A DNA stretch of 27,511 bases from a virus (taxonomy: Duplodnaviria; Heunggongvirae; Uroviricota; Caudoviricetes). Positions 15,249 to 22,168 of this stretch are shown here, one piece after another (position 1 is the first letter of the stretch; each line of letters begins with the position of its first letter). The stretch lies in IMG/VR virus record IMGVR_UViG_2537562015_000010, one strand, 5' to 3'. The position numbers and the translations under genes were made by a program. The notes beneath the pieces were generated by a model, which did not search any database, was not told the DNA's origin, and saw only the letters and a program-made list of their open reading frames with translations.

Positions 15249-15720
15249 CGCGCTTCGCTTGTCTGCTGCTTCGCCGGGGCATAAAAAATTTATGCCCCGA
15301 CTCTCCAGCTCCTGTATCAGTCAGATAATTTCACGACGCTTTCCTGCTTATTGCCATCATCGACGGTCAGACTCTTACGCAATCCCACTGCGCTGACTGC
15401 ATGTTCTCGCCGCCTCAGTGCGATTTTGACGGCCTTACCTTTCACCCCATCAAACCAGAATCCCTCACGTATTTTTCACGCTCAGCGTGAGAAATACGGC
15501 CATTCTGTCGTGTCGCTGCGACATCGTTAAGGGAACGCTATTTACCCCCTGAAACGCGGGCTGTTCCCCCGTCACCTGCGCGCAGAAAAAGCGCGTTTTT
15601 TTGTGCACGCACGGATCCTTGACGGATCCAGCCGCCACGCGGGCCGGAAGGGCAAAAAGTCGTTCAAAAAAATTGTGCAAATTTGTGCACTATTGTGCAG
15701 TCAAAAAATTGCCACATGTT
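15249..15720. other. Predicted cos / packaging region (exact cohesive-end site not identified)
   Basis: Non-coding region between the portal gene and the cargo, where P2 carries cos; contains a 29-bp dyad at 15469-15497, ACGGATCC at 15611-15618 and 15622-15629, and TTGTGCA at 15601, 15673, 15683 and 15693. Confidence 0.5.
15276..15298 (+). other. Perfect 10-bp stem hairpin 28 nt after the Q stop
   Basis: GGGGCATAAA-AAA-TTTATGCCCC; no U-run follows, so it may be a weak terminator or part of the cos/packaging signal. Confidence 0.4.
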
Positions 15721-15879
15721 GAATATTGCAGGTTAGCTTTAAGTTAGTTTAACTAAAATTTTCAGTGAATCGGGCGAAGTGGAGCTGTGAGCATAAAATC
15801 CTTGTTCACTAAGCAACATTATCTCAGTACATATTTGAAGCTAATTCCGCATGTGGCGATTTTTATGCAGGTGCATGAT

Positions 15880-15911
15880 ATAAGCAAAAGCCCGCCACAT
15901 CTGGCGGGCTT
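15880..15911 (-). terminator. Rho-independent terminator of the cargo operon
   Basis: 10-bp stem AAGCCCGCCA / TGGCGGGCTT with loop CATC; on the minus strand it is followed by TTTTGCTTAT; about 55 nt downstream of the ASCH gene stop. Confidence 0.55.
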
Positions 15912-15964
15912 CAGCGAAACGGTCCTTAAACGATCATGCAGAACCATGCAGCAAAGTCATGCTC

Positions 15965-16342
15965 TTATCCGCGTATATACCTAAAGGACTGAGGTGGTAC
16001 AGCGCCAGGTATCAATTCATTAAGTGGAATTGGAGTATCATAGCGCAGAGGGTTTTTTACTTCTATTGCGAATCCCTTGTCTCTTTCTGAAAAATATTCA
16101 TCAAAAAAATCCCGCGTAATACCTGCATACTTTTTTGTCATATTCCATAATTCATCTGGCTGAGATGACAAAACCTTTTCGATTTCAAACTCACCAATTA
16201 CCTTTCCGACGGGCATTGTTGCATAAATAATAACCGCTCGGACTTCTTTGTTCCGAAAAATTGTCTTCCTGAATTCGAATTTTTTATATCCATTTAAAAT
16301 GGATTCAGCGAACTCTGGTTTAATCGACAATAAAATTTTCAT
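15965..16342 (-). CDS. ASCH (PUA-like) domain protein, cargo gene 2
   Basis: 125 aa; N-terminus MKILLSIKPEFAESILNGYKKFEFRK carries the ASCH signature G-x-K-x-x-E-x-R; AT-rich codon usage; ATG at 16340-16342 overlaps the upstream gene by 23 nt. Confidence 0.6.
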   Translation of the reverse strand: MKILLSIKPEFAESILNGYKKFEFRKTIFRNKEVRAVIIYATMPVGKVIGEFEIEKVLSSQPDELWNMTKKYAGITRDFFDEYFSERDKGFAIEVKNPLRYDTPIPLNELIPGAVPPQSFRYIRG

Positions 16343-17375
16343 TAACCTTTCCCGCGCTTAAAACAGCTTTGAAGTGAATATCACTTAACGTGAAGAACCC
16401 TGAATAGCTTGGAGTATAACCTAAAATACTCAACAATTCATCTCTAATTATTCTTTTTTGCAAAGGGAAATTGTAAGTTAACTTAATTACATGTGGAGGA
16501 TAACATCTGCTATAATAAGCATGTAATTCTTCATCAGAAAAAATACTGGCGCCTCCACAATAAGACTTAAACTCATCATATGATAAAAATTCTCGAATGT
16601 TTTTATACTCTTGTAATGTACAAACAGAAGTAACCACCGACCGATATTTCGCCGCTCCCTGTCCATCTGTCGTTCGATAAATAATTATATTATCTCCTGG
16701 CTGAAGAAGCTCCATGCCTTTCATCGCGCCAATATATATCTTATGAATACTATTAGTATAAGTAACATCTTCTAAAATAGAATCATTTTCATTTTTTAAA
16801 ATTGACTCCGGGAAAAGCCTTGAATGAAACTCAGGTTTAATGGCTAATAAAAAATTTCTTCCATTCATTTTTATCATAGGATAATTATTATAAAATGATG
16901 CTGCTGATGGCTTCCAGTTAAAATCCTTAAAGTAGACACCTTCACAACCGTTTTCCGTCTCAAGATTTTTTCTTGAACACAATTTAAAACCATAGCGTTC
17001 AAGTAAACGAATCAATCCTTGATGTTTGTCAAAGATAGTAACGTACACTTCCTGAATATCATGAGGCATTGCAAAATCAAATATTTTTCTTACAAATCTC
17101 TCCCCCATTTTCGTTCCACGAGCATCTATTTTAAATGTTCCGCATTTAAGACGTTTTTTCATAGGGAAAGATGGGGTCATGTCATTTAATTCTTCATTTT
17201 CAATTTTGAGGTATAAAAAACCATCTATTTTTCCATAGTCATCATAAGATACGTATGCTTTCTCGTTTCTTTTCTTTAAGAACCAGCTTTCAAAAGTTGG
17301 GTAGTCATTTTTAAGTGAGTCAAAAAAAACATCTGAGAGGTCAACCTTCCCAAATTCGACATAACTAAGAGACAT
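16320..17375 (-). CDS. Two-domain cargo protein: N-terminal GNAT-like acetyltransferase fold plus C-terminal divergent ASCH-like domain
   Basis: 351 aa; the segment RGTKMGERFVRKIFDFAMPHDIQEVYVTIFDKHQGLIRLLERYGFK resembles GNAT motifs A/B; the C-terminal half begins LLAIKPEF, paralogous to the downstream ASCH protein but lacking the G-x-K-x-x-E-x-R motif; ATG at 17373-17375 with AAGGA upstream; AT-rich. Confidence 0.5.
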   Translation of the reverse strand: MSLSYVEFGKVDLSDVFFDSLKNDYPTFESWFLKKRNEKAYVSYDDYGKIDGFLYLKIENEELNDMTPSFPMKKRLKCGTFKIDARGTKMGERFVRKIFDFAMPHDIQEVYVTIFDKHQGLIRLLERYGFKLCSRKNLETENGCEGVYFKDFNWKPSAASFYNNYPMIKMNGRNFLLAIKPEFHSRLFPESILKNENDSILEDVTYTNSIHKIYIGAMKGMELLQPGDNIIIYRTTDGQGAAKYRSVVTSVCTLQEYKNIREFLSYDEFKSYCGGASIFSDEELHAYYSRCYPPHVIKLTYNFPLQKRIIRDELLSILGYTPSYSGFFTLSDIHFKAVLSAGKVNENFIVD

Positions 17376-17425
17376 TGTGCCATCCTTTTCAGTAGGTATT
17401 TTGCAAAAAAACGTTACTGTATCTC

Positions 17426-17453
17426 AAAATATATGTAAATAAACTTAGATCAA
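17426..17453 (-). promoter_or_regulatory. Candidate sigma70 promoter for the cargo operon
   Basis: On the minus strand TTGATC-N16-TATTTT, about 45-50 nt upstream of the cargo ATG, in an AT-rich spacer. Confidence 0.3.
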
Positions 17454-17491
17454 AAAAATGCTTACTAACGCTTTGTCTTACCGGGGCTGTG

Positions 17492-17551
17492 TGTGTCGAA
17501 ATACTCGCTTAGTGGCAGGGTGATAACTACATCTACCTCTACTGGTGCAAT
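17492..17551 (-). pseudogene. About 60-nt relic of a parM-like gene (recombination scar at the cargo boundary)
   Basis: By hand alignment, 17492-17551 is about 83% identical (50 of 60) to 18539-18598 inside the intact parM-like gene; no ORF spans it. Confidence 0.5.
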
Positions 17552-17589
17552 ATCAGACTCTGCCCGGCGCAGAGTATTCCGACTGTTGG

Positions 17590-17901
17590 TCATTGAGGGA
17601 ACATGGCCTGTATATTCTTTTTCATCTGTGTAACGTTGTTGTTCTCTGTATCCTGCTGTGGTGATTTATTTCGTGGCGTTGGTGTGAGCGGCTGGCTGAA
17701 TCCGCTTTCAGGCCATTCAGCCAGCCAGTAAGCAAAGGCAGGATCGCTTTTAATGAGTGCCAGTCCAGCCAGAAAGGCCGCGCGTTGCGCGCGGCTACGT
17801 TCAGAGGCTGGCAGGCTGTCGAGGTAATTACACGCCTCCCGTTCACTATTGACGGCGGCTGGCTTCAGATAGAAACTTATCCGTCTGGTTGGTGTCGTCA
17901 T
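17590..17901 (-). CDS. parR: ParR-like centromere-binding protein (ribbon-helix-helix)
   Basis: ATG at 17899-17901 with AAGGAG 7 nt upstream, 5 nt after the parM stop; RISFYLKPAAVNSEREACNYLDSLPASERSRAQRAAFLAGLALIKSDP resembles plasmid R1 ParR (TIAFKLNPDV...LDSIPQGERSRLNRAALTAGLALYRQDP); the longer ORF-track form overlapping parM is rejected. Confidence 0.65.
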   Translation of the reverse strand: MTTPTRRISFYLKPAAVNSEREACNYLDSLPASERSRAQRAAFLAGLALIKSDPAFAYWLAEWPESGFSQPLTPTPRNKSPQQDTENNNVTQMKKNIQAMFPQ

Positions 17902-17905
17902 TGGT

Positions 17906-18865
17906 TTACTCCTTGTCCATTGCGTACAGCCCATTAACCAGAGCAAACTGTGGCACCCCGTCCGCGATGAAAGTCGCATTAACTCCGCAGGCTTCGCGGA
18001 TAGCGGGTGCCACAATCTCCGCCCCGCCACCGACAACCATCACCCGTCCGTAACCCGAAAAACCCGCCAGCGCGCGGATCACGCGTTGTTTCAGTGTTTC
18101 TTCCTTTTCACGAATAACCGCCATCAGGCTGGCGTAATGCGCGTCATTGTGGATGTGCTGGCGCAGCCAGGCTTCATCATGGCGATGTTCGATAATGGTA
18201 TTGGCGATGTGGTGACTGGTGCGCATACCGTTAGTGGCCATCACCGACAGTACGGCATCGGCCATCAGAGAAACGCCTACGTGTGGATCGCAAAACACCT
18301 GGCTGATACCTGCCAGTTGCCCCTGAACCTTTGCCACATCCAGCGTGGTTCCGCCCAAATCCACAATCAGCAGGGATTCAAACGGACTCATGTCAGCCAG
18401 TGCCTTAAAGCCAGCCGGAATGGATTCAGGCATAACCCGCACGTTACGGATAGTGAATGCTTCGCCGTTCTGGTACTCCACCGGGCGCATGACGTTCGCT
18501 TTTTTGCGGTTGATGTTGGCCATGTCCGGCTGTGCGTTTGTGTCGAAATATTCGCTCAGTGGCAGGGTGACAACCACATCCACCTCCTGTGGTGTGATGC
18601 CTGATTTGACCAGCGCGTGATGAATGGCAATGACATTCACATCGCTGTACTGGTATTGCGTGTCGGTCGTCTGGACAAAGCGATCGCTGACCGGATCAAA
18701 ACCATAGCGCACGCCATCAAGCATGTAGTTCGCGGGCTGCGTGCCACCGAACGGCGCAGACCATTCCGACTTGAAGCTGTTCGGGCTGATGGCGTTGCGG
18801 CGTTCGCCGTTCTCAGTCCATGCCAGCTTGATGTTGGTGGAGCCGTCATCGATACAAATTTTCAT
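17906..18865 (-). CDS. parM: ParM/StbA-like actin-type segregation ATPase
   Basis: 319 aa; N-terminus MKICIDDGSTNIKLAW...ISPNSFK...YQYSDVNVIAIHHAL resembles R1 ParM (MLVFIDDGSTNIKLQW...); ATG at 18863-18865 with AAGGA upstream. Confidence 0.8.
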   Translation of the reverse strand: MKICIDDGSTNIKLAWTENGERRNAISPNSFKSEWSAPFGGTQPANYMLDGVRYGFDPVSDRFVQTTDTQYQYSDVNVIAIHHALVKSGITPQEVDVVVTLPLSEYFDTNAQPDMANINRKKANVMRPVEYQNGEAFTIRNVRVMPESIPAGFKALADMSPFESLLIVDLGGTTLDVAKVQGQLAGISQVFCDPHVGVSLMADAVLSVMATNGMRTSHHIANTIIEHRHDEAWLRQHIHNDAHYASLMAVIREKEETLKQRVIRALAGFSGYGRVMVVGGGAEIVAPAIREACGVNATFIADGVPQFALVNGLYAMDKE

Positions 18866-18894
18866 GTCGCTTTTCCTTATGTTGATTAATTAAT

Positions 18895-19005
18895 CGTTTA
18901 CGGGATTCTGAAATCCCGTTTTTGCCTGTTTTATGCGCGCTTCATATATCGCGGCGCGTTTTTTGCTCATTTACGGGATTTGTGAATCCCGTTTCTGTCT
19001 GTTTT
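18895..19005. repeat. Two 38-bp direct repeats, each containing the palindrome ACGGGATT-N4-AATCCCGT
   Basis: Repeat 1 at 18895-18932 (A-parM intergenic) and repeat 2 at 18968-19005 (inside the last codons of gpA); 31 of 38 positions identical; 73-bp period. Confidence 0.5.
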
Positions 19006-21782
19006 TTGTTTCCACTGGTCAGGCCACCCCGCAGCAGGTCTGCTTTGCGGCGGGCGCGTTCAGTGGTTTCACTGATTCTCTGTGCGTGCTCTGCGTCGCG
19101 GATGGCGCGCAGCATGTCAGAAAGCACGGTAACGGGGGTTTTCATGGTGTTCTGGTCTTGCTGAAGTGTGGATGCCAGGCGTGCGGCGGCTTCGGGGTCT
19201 GACGCCCCCAGCTGTTCCAGATAGCTGGCGACCGGGTTATGGCAGATCTCCGTGCTGCTTACGCCGTGGTTACGGCTCAGGCGCTGCCAGAGCTGCGTGA
19301 TCCGGCTGTCCGGTCGGGTATCCGGTTTGCGTACAATTTCAAATCCCTGCGGTGCAATGATGCTGCCGTCAACGTACAGACTGCCGCCCCGTAACAGGTG
19401 CTGCATCTGCTGTTCACCGATATGCAGGCCGAGAGATTCAGCAGACTCCCGCCATTCTTTAGCGAGTAATTCGTGGTTATCAGGCAAAGGCCGCGGCTGT
19501 TTGCGGCTCTGTGTCCAGTTCTGCATTTCATCACTGTTGTTTTTTGCCTGTTTGTCACGCAGCGAACGCATCAGCGCCCGGCGTTCGTGCCGTTTCAGTG
19601 AGCGCATCCATTCGTTCACTTCAACACCGTCAGGGATCTGCGGCCACGGTGCTGGCCGTTCTTCCGGCTGTTCTGTCCCGTTGTTGTCCGTTTCCTGTAC
19701 ACGGGGACAGTTATTGCCACGAGTCCAAGGGGCGGCAGGGCCGCCCTGAAGGTCAAAACCATTTTCGCGGGTGCTGTCTTCCGCTTCCGGTTTGCGTCTT
19801 ACCAGCTTCCAGTTATCCGGATGCGTGCACACACGGGAGGATTCCCCGATGAGTGGTGACCAGATCCCATAAATCTGTACGCTCTGTTCGCCGTAATCGT
19901 TCAGCTCTTCTGCGAGGTCGTAGGCGGTGCGAATCAGGTAGTCTTTGCGTGGAACAAGTACGCCACCCTGTTTCTCAATGTAGGTGGCAAAACATCCGGC
20001 ATCAGCGGCAGCGAGTACCGCATCCATTGCGTCATCCTTCAGCCGTTGCGGGCCTTCCGGGTTGCGTGCCATCTGGCTGGCAAGGCGGCGCAGTTCACGC
20101 CACACCTGACGGGAGGGGATACCAAAGAACTGGAACTGGCGGACCCGGTGAAGGCGCGCCCAGCCGATGGCGCGTTCCACGCTCTCGGCCATTGATTTTC
20201 CGGTTTCGTGGTCAACGCGTGGCTTGCCCGTTTTCGGGTCGATGCCATCCACGGCGCGGCTGTCCAGGTTCTTTCCGATGTAGGTGGCGATGTAGCTGGT
20301 TGGCGTGCCTTTTGAGCCGTCGACGTACTCCGCCTTAAAACGCGGAGTTATGTCATCGCCCAGCTCGTGGCGGTCTTCCTGAATGGCAATATCGCGGGTG
20401 TGGGACACGATGGTGTCGATTTCTTCCGGATGTGCAAAGACCATCATATGCCAGTGCACAGTGCCGTCATGGTGAGGCTCCACCGTGCGGATGCCATACC
20501 AGCGAAGACCGTCGCGGTTCAGTTTTTTGCGGACCGCCGCAAAAAACGTGTTAACCAGGTAATCGCTGGAGTCGCGCATGGTGGCCCCGTTCCATTTGGG
20601 ATTCGGATGGCCGTTCTCTGTTGTGGCGTGGTATTTTGACGGGCAGGTGACAGTCAGAAACACCGCTTTGTCGCCACGGGCTTCGGCCAGAAGTTCCAGT
20701 CCCTTCATGGTGGCCATCATTTCTGCCTTACGGTGAACCGGGTTACTTACTCCCGCGTAATACACCGTCTCGAGATCAATCGTGAACCCGTCTTCGTTTT
20801 CCAGCATGAAACTTTTCAGGAAATCGCGTGTTTTCTCGCGCTGTGCGCGAAACTCGCTTAACGCGTCCTGGCTCAGATAGGGTGATGTTTTTCTGGAAAC
20901 CAGACAGGCGGCGCGGAGTTGTTCTTCCCGCCACTCGCAACGTAACAGCCACAGTTTGCGCTTCCACCAGTCCGCACAGGTCAGGCGAAGGATTGCACCC
21001 GGCAGCAGCTCTGTGTCCGGTTCGTTCCTCCGGTCTTTGTCTGTTGTCAGTACGTCATAATGCGGAGGCATGGCGTGCAGGTGTAACGCCATGCGGGCCA
21101 GCATCTGATACGCCTTCAGGGTTACATCCATGGTCAGCTCGCCATCGGTCGCGCCAAAGCCGTCGCAGAGTTTTTCGAAGGTGCTGCTGAACATTGCCGC
21201 CGTCATGGTGGCCAGCGTCTGTATCTGGCGCTTGTTAAGCTGCGGCAGGTAAAGCAAATCGTCCAGGCGTTCGCGTCCGGCAAGGGCGCGATAACCCGGT
21301 GTCAGCCAGCGGCTGTCGGTGCGCTCCAGACGTTCGAATATTTTGCGCAGGGTTCCGCGCGCGTAGCGTTCAGCCTGCCAGCTCTTTTTGCCTTTCTGGC
21401 GATCGGCTTCCTGTTTTTTGCGCAGGAAAGAGAGGTGGCGGCTCAGTGGTTCACGCAGATAAACAGGTAGTGCCTTTAGTGTGGCAAAGGCACGGGCTAC
21501 TGGGTCTTGTTCTGTTGCCCGGCGCTTACTGATGATGCTCTGTGTCAGCTTTTCACGCTGTCCGGCTTCCTCAAGGGATGCCATGAGTTTTTTACCCATG
21601 GCGGATTGTGCGAAAAAGGCTTCTTCCTTCGCTTCCTGTTCTTCCTGTGCCCTTTTGTCTGCCTCAAGGTAGTAACGGATGGCGCGTTGCAGGTCGGTTT
21701 CAGTTTCCTGCCTGCGCTCCGTAAATCTGGCCGGATCAATGGCTGGCCGTGGTTCATTCCAGCTCCATGCAAACTCGCTCAT
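18942..21782 (-). CDS. A: Replication initiator (rolling-circle nickase), P2 gpA-like
   Basis: RTVEPHHDGTVHWHMMVF (HUH motif) and SYIATYIGKN match P2 gpA; preferred start is ATG 21780-21782 in an ATGA overlap with the upstream ORF (the ORF track begins at GTG 21809); about 946 aa, longer than P2 gpA at both ends. Confidence 0.85.
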   Translation of the reverse strand: MSEFAWSWNEPRPAIDPARFTERRQETETDLQRAIRYYLEADKRAQEEQEAKEEAFFAQSAMGKKLMASLEEAGQREKLTQSIISKRRATEQDPVARAFATLKALPVYLREPLSRHLSFLRKKQEADRQKGKKSWQAERYARGTLRKIFERLERTDSRWLTPGYRALAGRERLDDLLYLPQLNKRQIQTLATMTAAMFSSTFEKLCDGFGATDGELTMDVTLKAYQMLARMALHLHAMPPHYDVLTTDKDRRNEPDTELLPGAILRLTCADWWKRKLWLLRCEWREEQLRAACLVSRKTSPYLSQDALSEFRAQREKTRDFLKSFMLENEDGFTIDLETVYYAGVSNPVHRKAEMMATMKGLELLAEARGDKAVFLTVTCPSKYHATTENGHPNPKWNGATMRDSSDYLVNTFFAAVRKKLNRDGLRWYGIRTVEPHHDGTVHWHMMVFAHPEEIDTIVSHTRDIAIQEDRHELGDDITPRFKAEYVDGSKGTPTSYIATYIGKNLDSRAVDGIDPKTGKPRVDHETGKSMAESVERAIGWARLHRVRQFQFFGIPSRQVWRELRRLASQMARNPEGPQRLKDDAMDAVLAAADAGCFATYIEKQGGVLVPRKDYLIRTAYDLAEELNDYGEQSVQIYGIWSPLIGESSRVCTHPDNWKLVRRKPEAEDSTRENGFDLQGGPAAPWTRGNNCPRVQETDNNGTEQPEERPAPWPQIPDGVEVNEWMRSLKRHERRALMRSLRDKQAKNNSDEMQNWTQSRKQPRPLPDNHELLAKEWRESAESLGLHIGEQQMQHLLRGGSLYVDGSIIAPQGFEIVRKPDTRPDSRITQLWQRLSRNHGVSSTEICHNPVASYLEQLGASDPEAAARLASTLQQDQNTMKTPVTVLSDMLRAIRDAEHAQRISETTERARRKADLLRGGLTSGNKKQTETGFTNPVNEQKTRRDI

Positions 21783-22168
21783 GGCTGGTATCCCGTCACG
21801 CGCTGCCACTCCTGCGAGAAGATGGCGGAAAGGCGGTTAAATTCAGCGGTGTATTCACTCAGCGAGGCACACCCGCCAGCAGTGCGATGCGCCAGCATTG
21901 CCGCGAATACGGAGGCCGGGGAGTCGTAATACGCCAGCAGTGATTCGCCGTGTGGTGTCAGGCAGTGCAACGCCAGCCCGTGTGGTGTGAAGTCCACGCG
22001 GTAGCAGTCGTCTACTGTGAAATAAAGGGTGTCCACATTCTCCGGTTTTGTAGTGCGTGCTCTGTTGTCACGACCACGGATATAAAGATCAAATAATCCC
22101 TGAAGAACGGGAGCCAGACGGGTGTCCTGTGTGCGCACCCATCTTGTGAAGTCATGAGCGTCAATCAT
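21779..22168 (-). CDS. Hypothetical early protein
   Basis: ORF coupled to gpA by an ATGA overlap; first ATG at 22166-22168 (the ORF track begins at TTG 22198); no recognisable motif. Confidence 0.4.
   Translation of the reverse strand: MIDAHDFTRWVRTQDTRLAPVLQGLFDLYIRGRDNRARTTKPENVDTLYFTVDDCYRVDFTPHGLALHCLTPHGESLLAYYDSPASVFAAMLAHRTAGGCASLSEYTAEFNRLSAIFSQEWQRVTGYQP

Follow-up and report, generated by a model that had tools for sequence, protein, structure and literature searches.

Immediately downstream of the partition gene parR, in a P2-type prophage, lies a short stretch of DNA that resembles part of parM, and an intact parM sits on the other side of parR. What is this stretch, where did it come from, and does it still do anything? 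We addressed these questions within a window of 27,511 nucleotides (the whole stretch of viral DNA that was analysed; IMG/VR record IMGVR_UViG_2537562015_000010), which is a P2-type prophage of the P88 group (Xuanwuvirus, Peduoviridae). Searched with megablast, positions 15400-19000 of this window matched 17 phage records, mostly P88-like (including P88 and Citrobacter phage Shae_phiSM) plus SopEPhi, as well as 1,408 of 5,426 complete E. coli genomes. The minus strand carries, in order, gpA, parM, parR, the parM-like stretch (hereafter the relic) and two AT-rich genes, followed by the cos region and the plus-strand portal gene. In both the window and its annotated relatives, the relic is therefore located in the variable gpA-gpQ region beside cos. 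The interval between gpA and gpQ is the hotspot for anti-phage systems in P2-like phages; in about one in four of these phages it includes a partition system (Rousset et al. 2022, PMC9122126). The resident genes, with the parts of parM that correspond to the relic, are:

18942-21809, minus strand: replication endonuclease gpA
17906..18865, minus strand: resident parM, intact, 319 aa (Pfam PF06406 + PF21523)
18751-18772, minus strand, within parM: counterpart of relic piece A
18525-18612, minus strand, within parM: counterpart of relic piece B
17590..17901, minus strand: parR, StbB-type, intact, 103 aa (Pfam PF10784, E=1e-25)

In the 76-nt gap between gpA and parM we also observed two 42-nt direct repeat units (18894-19008) that are 81% alike, each holding the palindrome ACGGGATT..AATCCCGT. 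Their position upstream of parM suggests a putative parC centromere/operator for ParR.

The initial annotation had reported about 60 nt of similarity to a segment of a parM-like gene some 1 kb away, and had read the stretch as derived from such a gene. Both points hold up. A repeat search aligned 17489-17547 with 18536-18594 on the same strand (59 nt, 50 matches, 85%), with a start-to-start distance of 1047 nt. The best blastn match of the 214-nt parR-to-cargo interval to the rest of the window scored 67.1 bits, whereas 300 dinucleotide shuffles of the interval scored 23.5 bits on average (sd 1.9) and 32.8 at most; the observed match is hence about 23 sd above the shuffles, and machine alignment places the similarity well beyond chance. 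The relic also matches parM in tblastx (E=3e-8), and its translation within a 42-aa ORF (described below) matches positions 87-111 of Pfam StbA_N, the ParM N-terminal domain (PF06406), with E=2e-5. This hit scores 25.0 bits against a curated cut-off of 24.6; a Salmonella variant of the ORF scores 24.1 bits, just below that cut-off.

The core of the relic lies within the segment originally delimited (17481-17551), but the parM-derived DNA is longer, covering 105 nt (17481-17585) in two pieces:

17564..17585, minus strand: relic piece A, equivalent to parM codons ~32-39 (SEYSAPG vs SEWSAPFG; 18/22 matches)
17481..17563, minus strand: relic piece B, equivalent to parM codons 86-113, translating to AESDIAPVEVDVVITLPLSEYFDTHSPG, with the 59-nt core at 85%

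Over 25 codons (86-110), piece B is 76% identical to the resident parM. Piece A is further supported by the repeat search (18/20) and by blastn (E=0.029 against 4.2 kb). The two pieces are collinear with parM and on the same strand, with 140 nt of the gene missing between them. Piece A begins 4 nt past the parR stop, and at most a few nucleotides separate the end of piece B from the cassette start; together they span the gap from edge to edge, so all of the DNA between parR and the cassette derives from parM. At one Salmonella locus (L012), a 1-nt deletion brings both pieces into a single frame (SLNDQQSEYSAPG-RSDIAPEEVDVVATLPLSEYFDT; P0003), which supports the parM origin of piece A.

This arrangement contains three novel joints. 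The first connects the parR stop plus 4 nt to codon ~32 of the gene that gave rise to the relic (parM'), the second is the 140-nt internal deletion, and the third connects parM' codon ~113 to the edge of the AT-rich cassette. In intact parM, the hexamers GCGCCG and GCGCTG (GCGCYG) are found at the two endpoints of the internal deletion, which is what slippage or a microhomology deletion would leave behind. Microhomology between the end of parR and parM (CGGAAT) was also considered as the cause of the first joint, and was rejected because the relic-bearing parR has its own complete end and spacer. In total, about 36 of the 319 parM codons remain, and pieces A and B are mutually out of frame in the window. 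The relic thus falls far short of a complete two-domain ParM of about 320 aa (PF06406 + PF21523); judged by its coding content, it is a pseudogene fragment and cannot encode an actin-fold ATPase.

On its other side, the relic abuts the cargo, a candidate defence system:

15851..17479, minus strand: AT-rich cargo cassette, GC 0.35, candidate defence system PDC-M11 (PADLOC, Pfam)
17427->17398: the cassette's own promoter-like site (promoter scan)
16320-17375, minus strand: PDC-M11A, full length (PADLOC E=3.9e-131)
15965-16342, minus strand: PDC-M11B, full length (PADLOC E=5.7e-51), with an ASCH domain (Pfam)
15909->15886: hairpin and T-run after the ASCH gene, read from the sequence

The PDC-M11 models are those of PADLOC-DB v2, and the A and B genes are adjacent, as this system is defined. 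At about 91% identity, the cassette is shared with SopEPhi (orf12/orf13), Enterobacteriaceae bacterium G50 and three Fels-2-type contigs from IMG/VR, where it comes after a DinI-like gene and neither parMR nor the relic is present. In these five independent loci, homology to the cassette runs out at 17479 at one end (one locus stops at 17471) and at 15851/15852 at the other. The cassette has a GC content of 0.35, and its promoter region one of 0.29, compared with 0.53 in the relic and 0.52-0.57 in parR, parM and gpA, with a step from 0.15-0.28 to 0.53 at ~17460-17480. As the GC jump and the end of homology both fall at the relic, it marks where the cassette ends, in composition as well as in structure, and the proposal in the initial annotation that it sits at the upstream boundary of the AT-rich cargo is borne out.

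The cos-side end of the cassette has features of its own. At 15843, the window is without 115 nt of backbone-type sequence found in its closest E. coli relative (L001) and also in Citrobacter phage Shae_phiSM, and a 21-nt inverted repeat (15704-15724 / 15844-15864) brackets a backbone segment beside the cassette end. An Rfam scan gave nothing on the relic. It did give a sub-threshold match to the rnk_pseudo leader (15878-15970, minus strand; 35.4 bits against a gathering threshold of 55, E=0.002), which overlaps the hairpin and T-run after the ASCH gene and is probably just the terminator hairpin.

The relic was present in 19/19 examined loci in which PDC-M11 lies next to parMR (from E. coli, Salmonella, metagenomes and IMG/VR), and was seen only in this setting. 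Nine P88-like relatives with other cargo lack it (blastn with word size 7; tblastx against parM-parR-gpA). Given this absence alongside other cargo, together with its absence from the Fels-2-type cassettes, the relic is neither an element of the backbone nor part of that cassette; it is linked to the cassette rather than the backbone, and is not the functional element conserved in all relatives that had been considered as an alternative. No relics of parM, parR or gpA were found by tblastx in the hotspots of nine other cargo types. Searching for the cassette protein in GTDB genomes and IMG/VR returned three kinds of context, namely parMR with the relic, the Fels-2-type arrangement, and distant Brenneria/Agrilactobacillus homologues without parM; none had a full-length parM' beside the cassette.

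Where, then, did the fragment come from? No two of the 20 backbone parM alleles examined differ by more than 3.5%, and the relic is 15-24% away from them. Of 26 differences between the relic and the resident parM, 13 are at third positions. Across the 25 aligned codons (86-110), the two have an identity of 0.76, with pS 0.54 and pN 0.14. Synonymous differences (Sd) account for 10.0 of 18 changes in these codons, where about 25% would be expected under neutrality (P=0.005). A comparison of two functional lineages over the same codons, the resident parM and a diverged E. coli allele (P0021/L028), gives nearly the same values (identity 0.76, pS 0.57, pN 0.13). As the pS and pN of the relic resemble those between functional lineages, most of its divergence probably accrued while it was still part of a working gene. 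From these 25-28 codons, we infer that the relic stems from another, diverged parM lineage and is not a recent copy of its neighbour. This second lineage would have about 76% nucleotide identity to the resident P88-type, similar to known functional alleles among themselves. Its synonymous signature is GTA GAT GTA GTT, CTA, TCT, ATT.

The diverged E. coli allele belongs to a second parMR lineage within a P2-like prophage (GCA_031701865.1 contig, nt 1-1016), in which ParM has 81% protein and ~77-79% DNA identity to the P88 type, ParR is 102 aa long, and different cargo follows parMR (HTH/peptidase M78 and a methyltransferase). Diverged par modules thus do circulate in the P2-like hotspot. As a candidate donor, this allele shares 'IAP' with the relic but is only 61% identical to it, and was rejected. 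At the DNA level, distant-mode blastn against phages and 5,426 E. coli genomes found no donor allele closer than the P88-type parM, and no donor was found by tblastn against plasmids and phages or by scanning IMG/VR and JGI metagenomes with degenerate DNA patterns whose geometry had been checked on the window. At the protein level, no donor ParM was found in a word-indexed search of 5.8 billion clustered proteins or by exhaustive phmmer against 1.84 billion representatives, and none of the 120 ParM homologues compared was closer.

Our main reading, to which we give a probability of about 0.78, is that the 105 nt between the parR stop and PDC-M11 are filled by the dead remnant of a second parM gene, carried as a passenger and most likely inactive. 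Such a remnant could have arisen by illegitimate recombination, in either direction, between a P88-type phage and an ancestral P2-like phage in which a diverged parM'(R') lay beside the cassette; the product would be parM-parR-[parM' lacking its 5' end]-...-cassette. Deletions would then have trimmed the redundant DNA, plausibly aided by the packaging limit of cos phages (mentioned in PMC13586616).

Alternatively, part of the resident P88-type parM could have been duplicated long ago, for example through unequal crossing-over in a concatemer, and the copy could have decayed neutrally since. The fragment's orientation and its distance of 1 kb from parM are in keeping with this, as is the fact that neither DNA nor protein searches found a closer relative than P88-type ParM. 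The synonymous excess described above, however, is not what neutral decay should produce, and a divergence of 24% greatly exceeds the spread of the backbone alleles (at most 3.5%), while copies of the relic differ from each other by only ~1.6%. A duplication therefore seems unlikely. Much less credible still, to the point of being negligible, is that the similarity is due to chance, or represents a conserved backbone element of all relatives such as a copy of a ParR-binding centromere. Nothing beyond the shortness of the match speaks for this, and against it stand the score relative to the shuffles, the protein-level Pfam match, the nine relatives with other cargo that lack the relic, and the repeat units upstream of parM (18894-19008), which do not occur in the relic.

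A remnant of a dead gene may nevertheless have acquired a new use, and here the sequence contains more than the initial annotation had allowed. There the stretch was described as not part of any ORF, which turned out to be incorrect, since it is contained in:

17465..17593, minus strand: ORF of 42 aa, MTNSRNTLRRAESDIAPVEVDVVITLPLSEYFDTHSPGKTKR, whose ATG overlaps the parR TGA (ATGA)

The stop codon of this ORF lies within cassette-edge sequence. It is called as a gene (P0002/P0124) in about 495 collection blocks and labelled a ParM-domain protein by some sources. The exact ORF of the window is recorded mainly from Salmonella enterica, which suggests that this may be a Salmonella prophage, and four loci (L034-L037) carry a variant that is also named in NCBI records mainly from Salmonella enterica. 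In relic-bearing phages parR ends in FPQ-TGA, and in others in FPE-TAA/TGA; the relatives with other cargo have GAATAA or GAGTGA at this point, none with an ATGA overlap. Variable sites among relic copies are radical at the protein level (V/E; I/D/A at one codon), and rarer variants of the ORF include S->F, T->P, D->G, I->D and stop losses. The ORF is open in nearly all copies, which are close relatives (pairwise 1.6%), and the 1-nt deletion in L012 frameshifts and truncates the frame that starts at ATGA.

As RNA, the relic of the window is predicted to form a long hairpin (-35.6 kcal/mol, z -3.1), as are two variants (L013, -36.6, z -3.6; L012, -38, z -2.5). The outer stem consists of piece A paired with the end of piece B, the complementary segments being 17573-17584 (GTCGGAATACTC) and 17497-17508 (GAGTATTTCGAC), respectively. 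All five variable positions lie in columns that are unpaired in the prediction, although this is weak evidence, as the structure was predicted from the same sequences. No covarying pair was found in the hairpin. No terminator-like sites were detected in 17300-17950; the hairpin is followed by ACACACACAGCCCCGG, with no T-run, so that the GC-rich hairpin plus T-run of an intrinsic terminator is not found after parR. Most of the complementarity of the outer stem appears, by reading, to be already present inside intact parM. An adjacent double change in piece A, TGG->TAC, is specific to the relic relative to parM and improves the stem; it looks like a templated quasi-palindrome correction, for which no selection would be needed.

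It is conceivable from these features that the fragment has been co-opted, either as a stable stem-loop that closes the parMR transcript at its 3' end, serving as a stabiliser or as an insulator ahead of the cassette promoter, or as a 42-aa peptide translated by coupling to parR. The relic folds better than its shuffles in the window and in both variants, a GC-rich hairpin or a terminator is found right after parR in several of the relatives that carry other cargo, a TAA->TGA change in the relic-bearing parR made the ATGA overlap, and the ORF is intact in ~495 collection blocks. This last observation carries little weight, since all copies are recent relatives, and the ORF is in any case disrupted by the L012 frameshift and altered by the substitutions and stop losses listed above. 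The hairpin, for its part, has neither covariation nor a T-run or terminator call, and its outer stem largely pre-exists in intact parM. We thus regard co-option as improbable. More specifically, the fragment may be kept as useful because its hairpin, with a 14-bp stem, acts as the parMR 3' end or an insulator, or because the 42-aa peptide interferes with ParM filaments, whether those of the resident or those of competing P2-like phages or plasmids; taken jointly, we think these quite doubtful. The fragment is most likely an inert, non-functional scar today.

The initial annotation had further interpreted the stretch as the scar of a recombination that exchanged the cargo. A real scar is indeed present at the cassette edge, but it is not the breakpoint of present-day exchange. 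Twelve distinct relic-bearing haplotypes were compared; their mean pairwise diversity is 0.027 in parM, 0.036 in parR, 0.016 in the relic and 0.004-0.008 in the cassette. In 100-nt windows, diversity is 4-7% over 18065-17767 and then about 2% at 17766-17667; from 17667 on through the cassette it is at most about 2%, and mostly about 1% or less. The low-diversity block therefore consists of the 3' half of parR, the relic and the cassette, and starts inside parR at ~17767 instead of at the relic. The window and L034-L037 show no differences from parR through the ASCH gene, and differ at 20-22 sites in parM, a pattern that indicates a recent homologous crossover near the parM/parR boundary. The diversity gradient and these four loci together argue that homologous crossovers in parM/parR have transferred the block from one P88-like backbone to another; a further crossover is assumed in the flank towards cos and the portal gene. 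This agrees with the swapping by recombination that has been described for such hotspots (PMC13586616). On this evidence the relic is a passenger from what would be an older illegitimate event, rather than a current breakpoint.

We also considered the divergent 3' end of parR (17590-17707) as the boundary of an imported segment. The ParR linker encoded here (residues ~65-95) is hypervariable in all relatives, with DNA homology gone at ~17707, and in the alignment of relatives the last residues, (K/G)NI(Q/R)xxFP(E/Q) (also written NIQxxFP(E/Q)), are conserved, as would be expected of a ParM-binding tail; this candidate was therefore rejected. The segment nevertheless lies within the low-diversity block. 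The longest perfect match between the relic and the resident parM is 13 nt. Efficient RecA-dependent recombination needs longer matches than this, and the repeat should therefore leave the par locus stable.

The relic is thus a well-resolved case of the way in which defence cassettes become joined into P2-like hotspots. A lost parM lineage would have left behind a datable fragment through an illegitimate join, after which crossovers in the flanking parM/parR spread cassette and scar together across E. coli and Salmonella backbones. Such scars could be used as lineage markers of cassette history, and this one suggests that partition-gene lineages exist, or existed, outside current collections. 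Our understanding of partition or defence mechanisms is unchanged by it.

Several known systems can be compared with this locus. The resident genes match those of the type II system parMRC of plasmid R1 (stbA/stbB) end to end (PF06406/PF21523 and PF10784), unlike the relic, which is two out-of-frame pieces of parM. The Felsduovirus SopEPhi has the same 1.63-kb cassette (orf12/orf13) at 91% identity and with equal ends, but differs from the window in being without parMR and the relic, and in having the cassette after a DinI-like gene. The locus and its partition system are those of the hotspot of Rousset et al. 2022 (PMC9122126), with the PADLOC candidate PDC-M11 as cargo here; whereas that study proposes recombination through the cos end plus homologous recombination, we place the gpA-side crossover inside parM/parR.

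The closest parallel is with the many very small intergenic pseudogenes in P2/P4 hotspots, which have been read as remnants of intense recombination (PMC13586616). Like these, the relic is a very short gene fragment beside an intact defence cassette in the cos-proximal gpA-gpQ hotspot. It shares the hotspot location, the short length relative to a gene that is intact elsewhere and the patchy presence of such remnants, and on its sequence is one of them, an instance of a kind of feature that has already been described and is ordinary for P2-like defence hotspots. It differs in that the parent gene is known (parM, which is not mentioned in that paper), the positions of three joints are known to a few nucleotides, and both a probable origin from a diverged allele and hitch-hiking with one cassette can be traced. 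What is added here is the two-piece structure, the mapped joints, the probable origin in a diverged parM, and a linkage to PDC-M11 that is found only in parMR phages.
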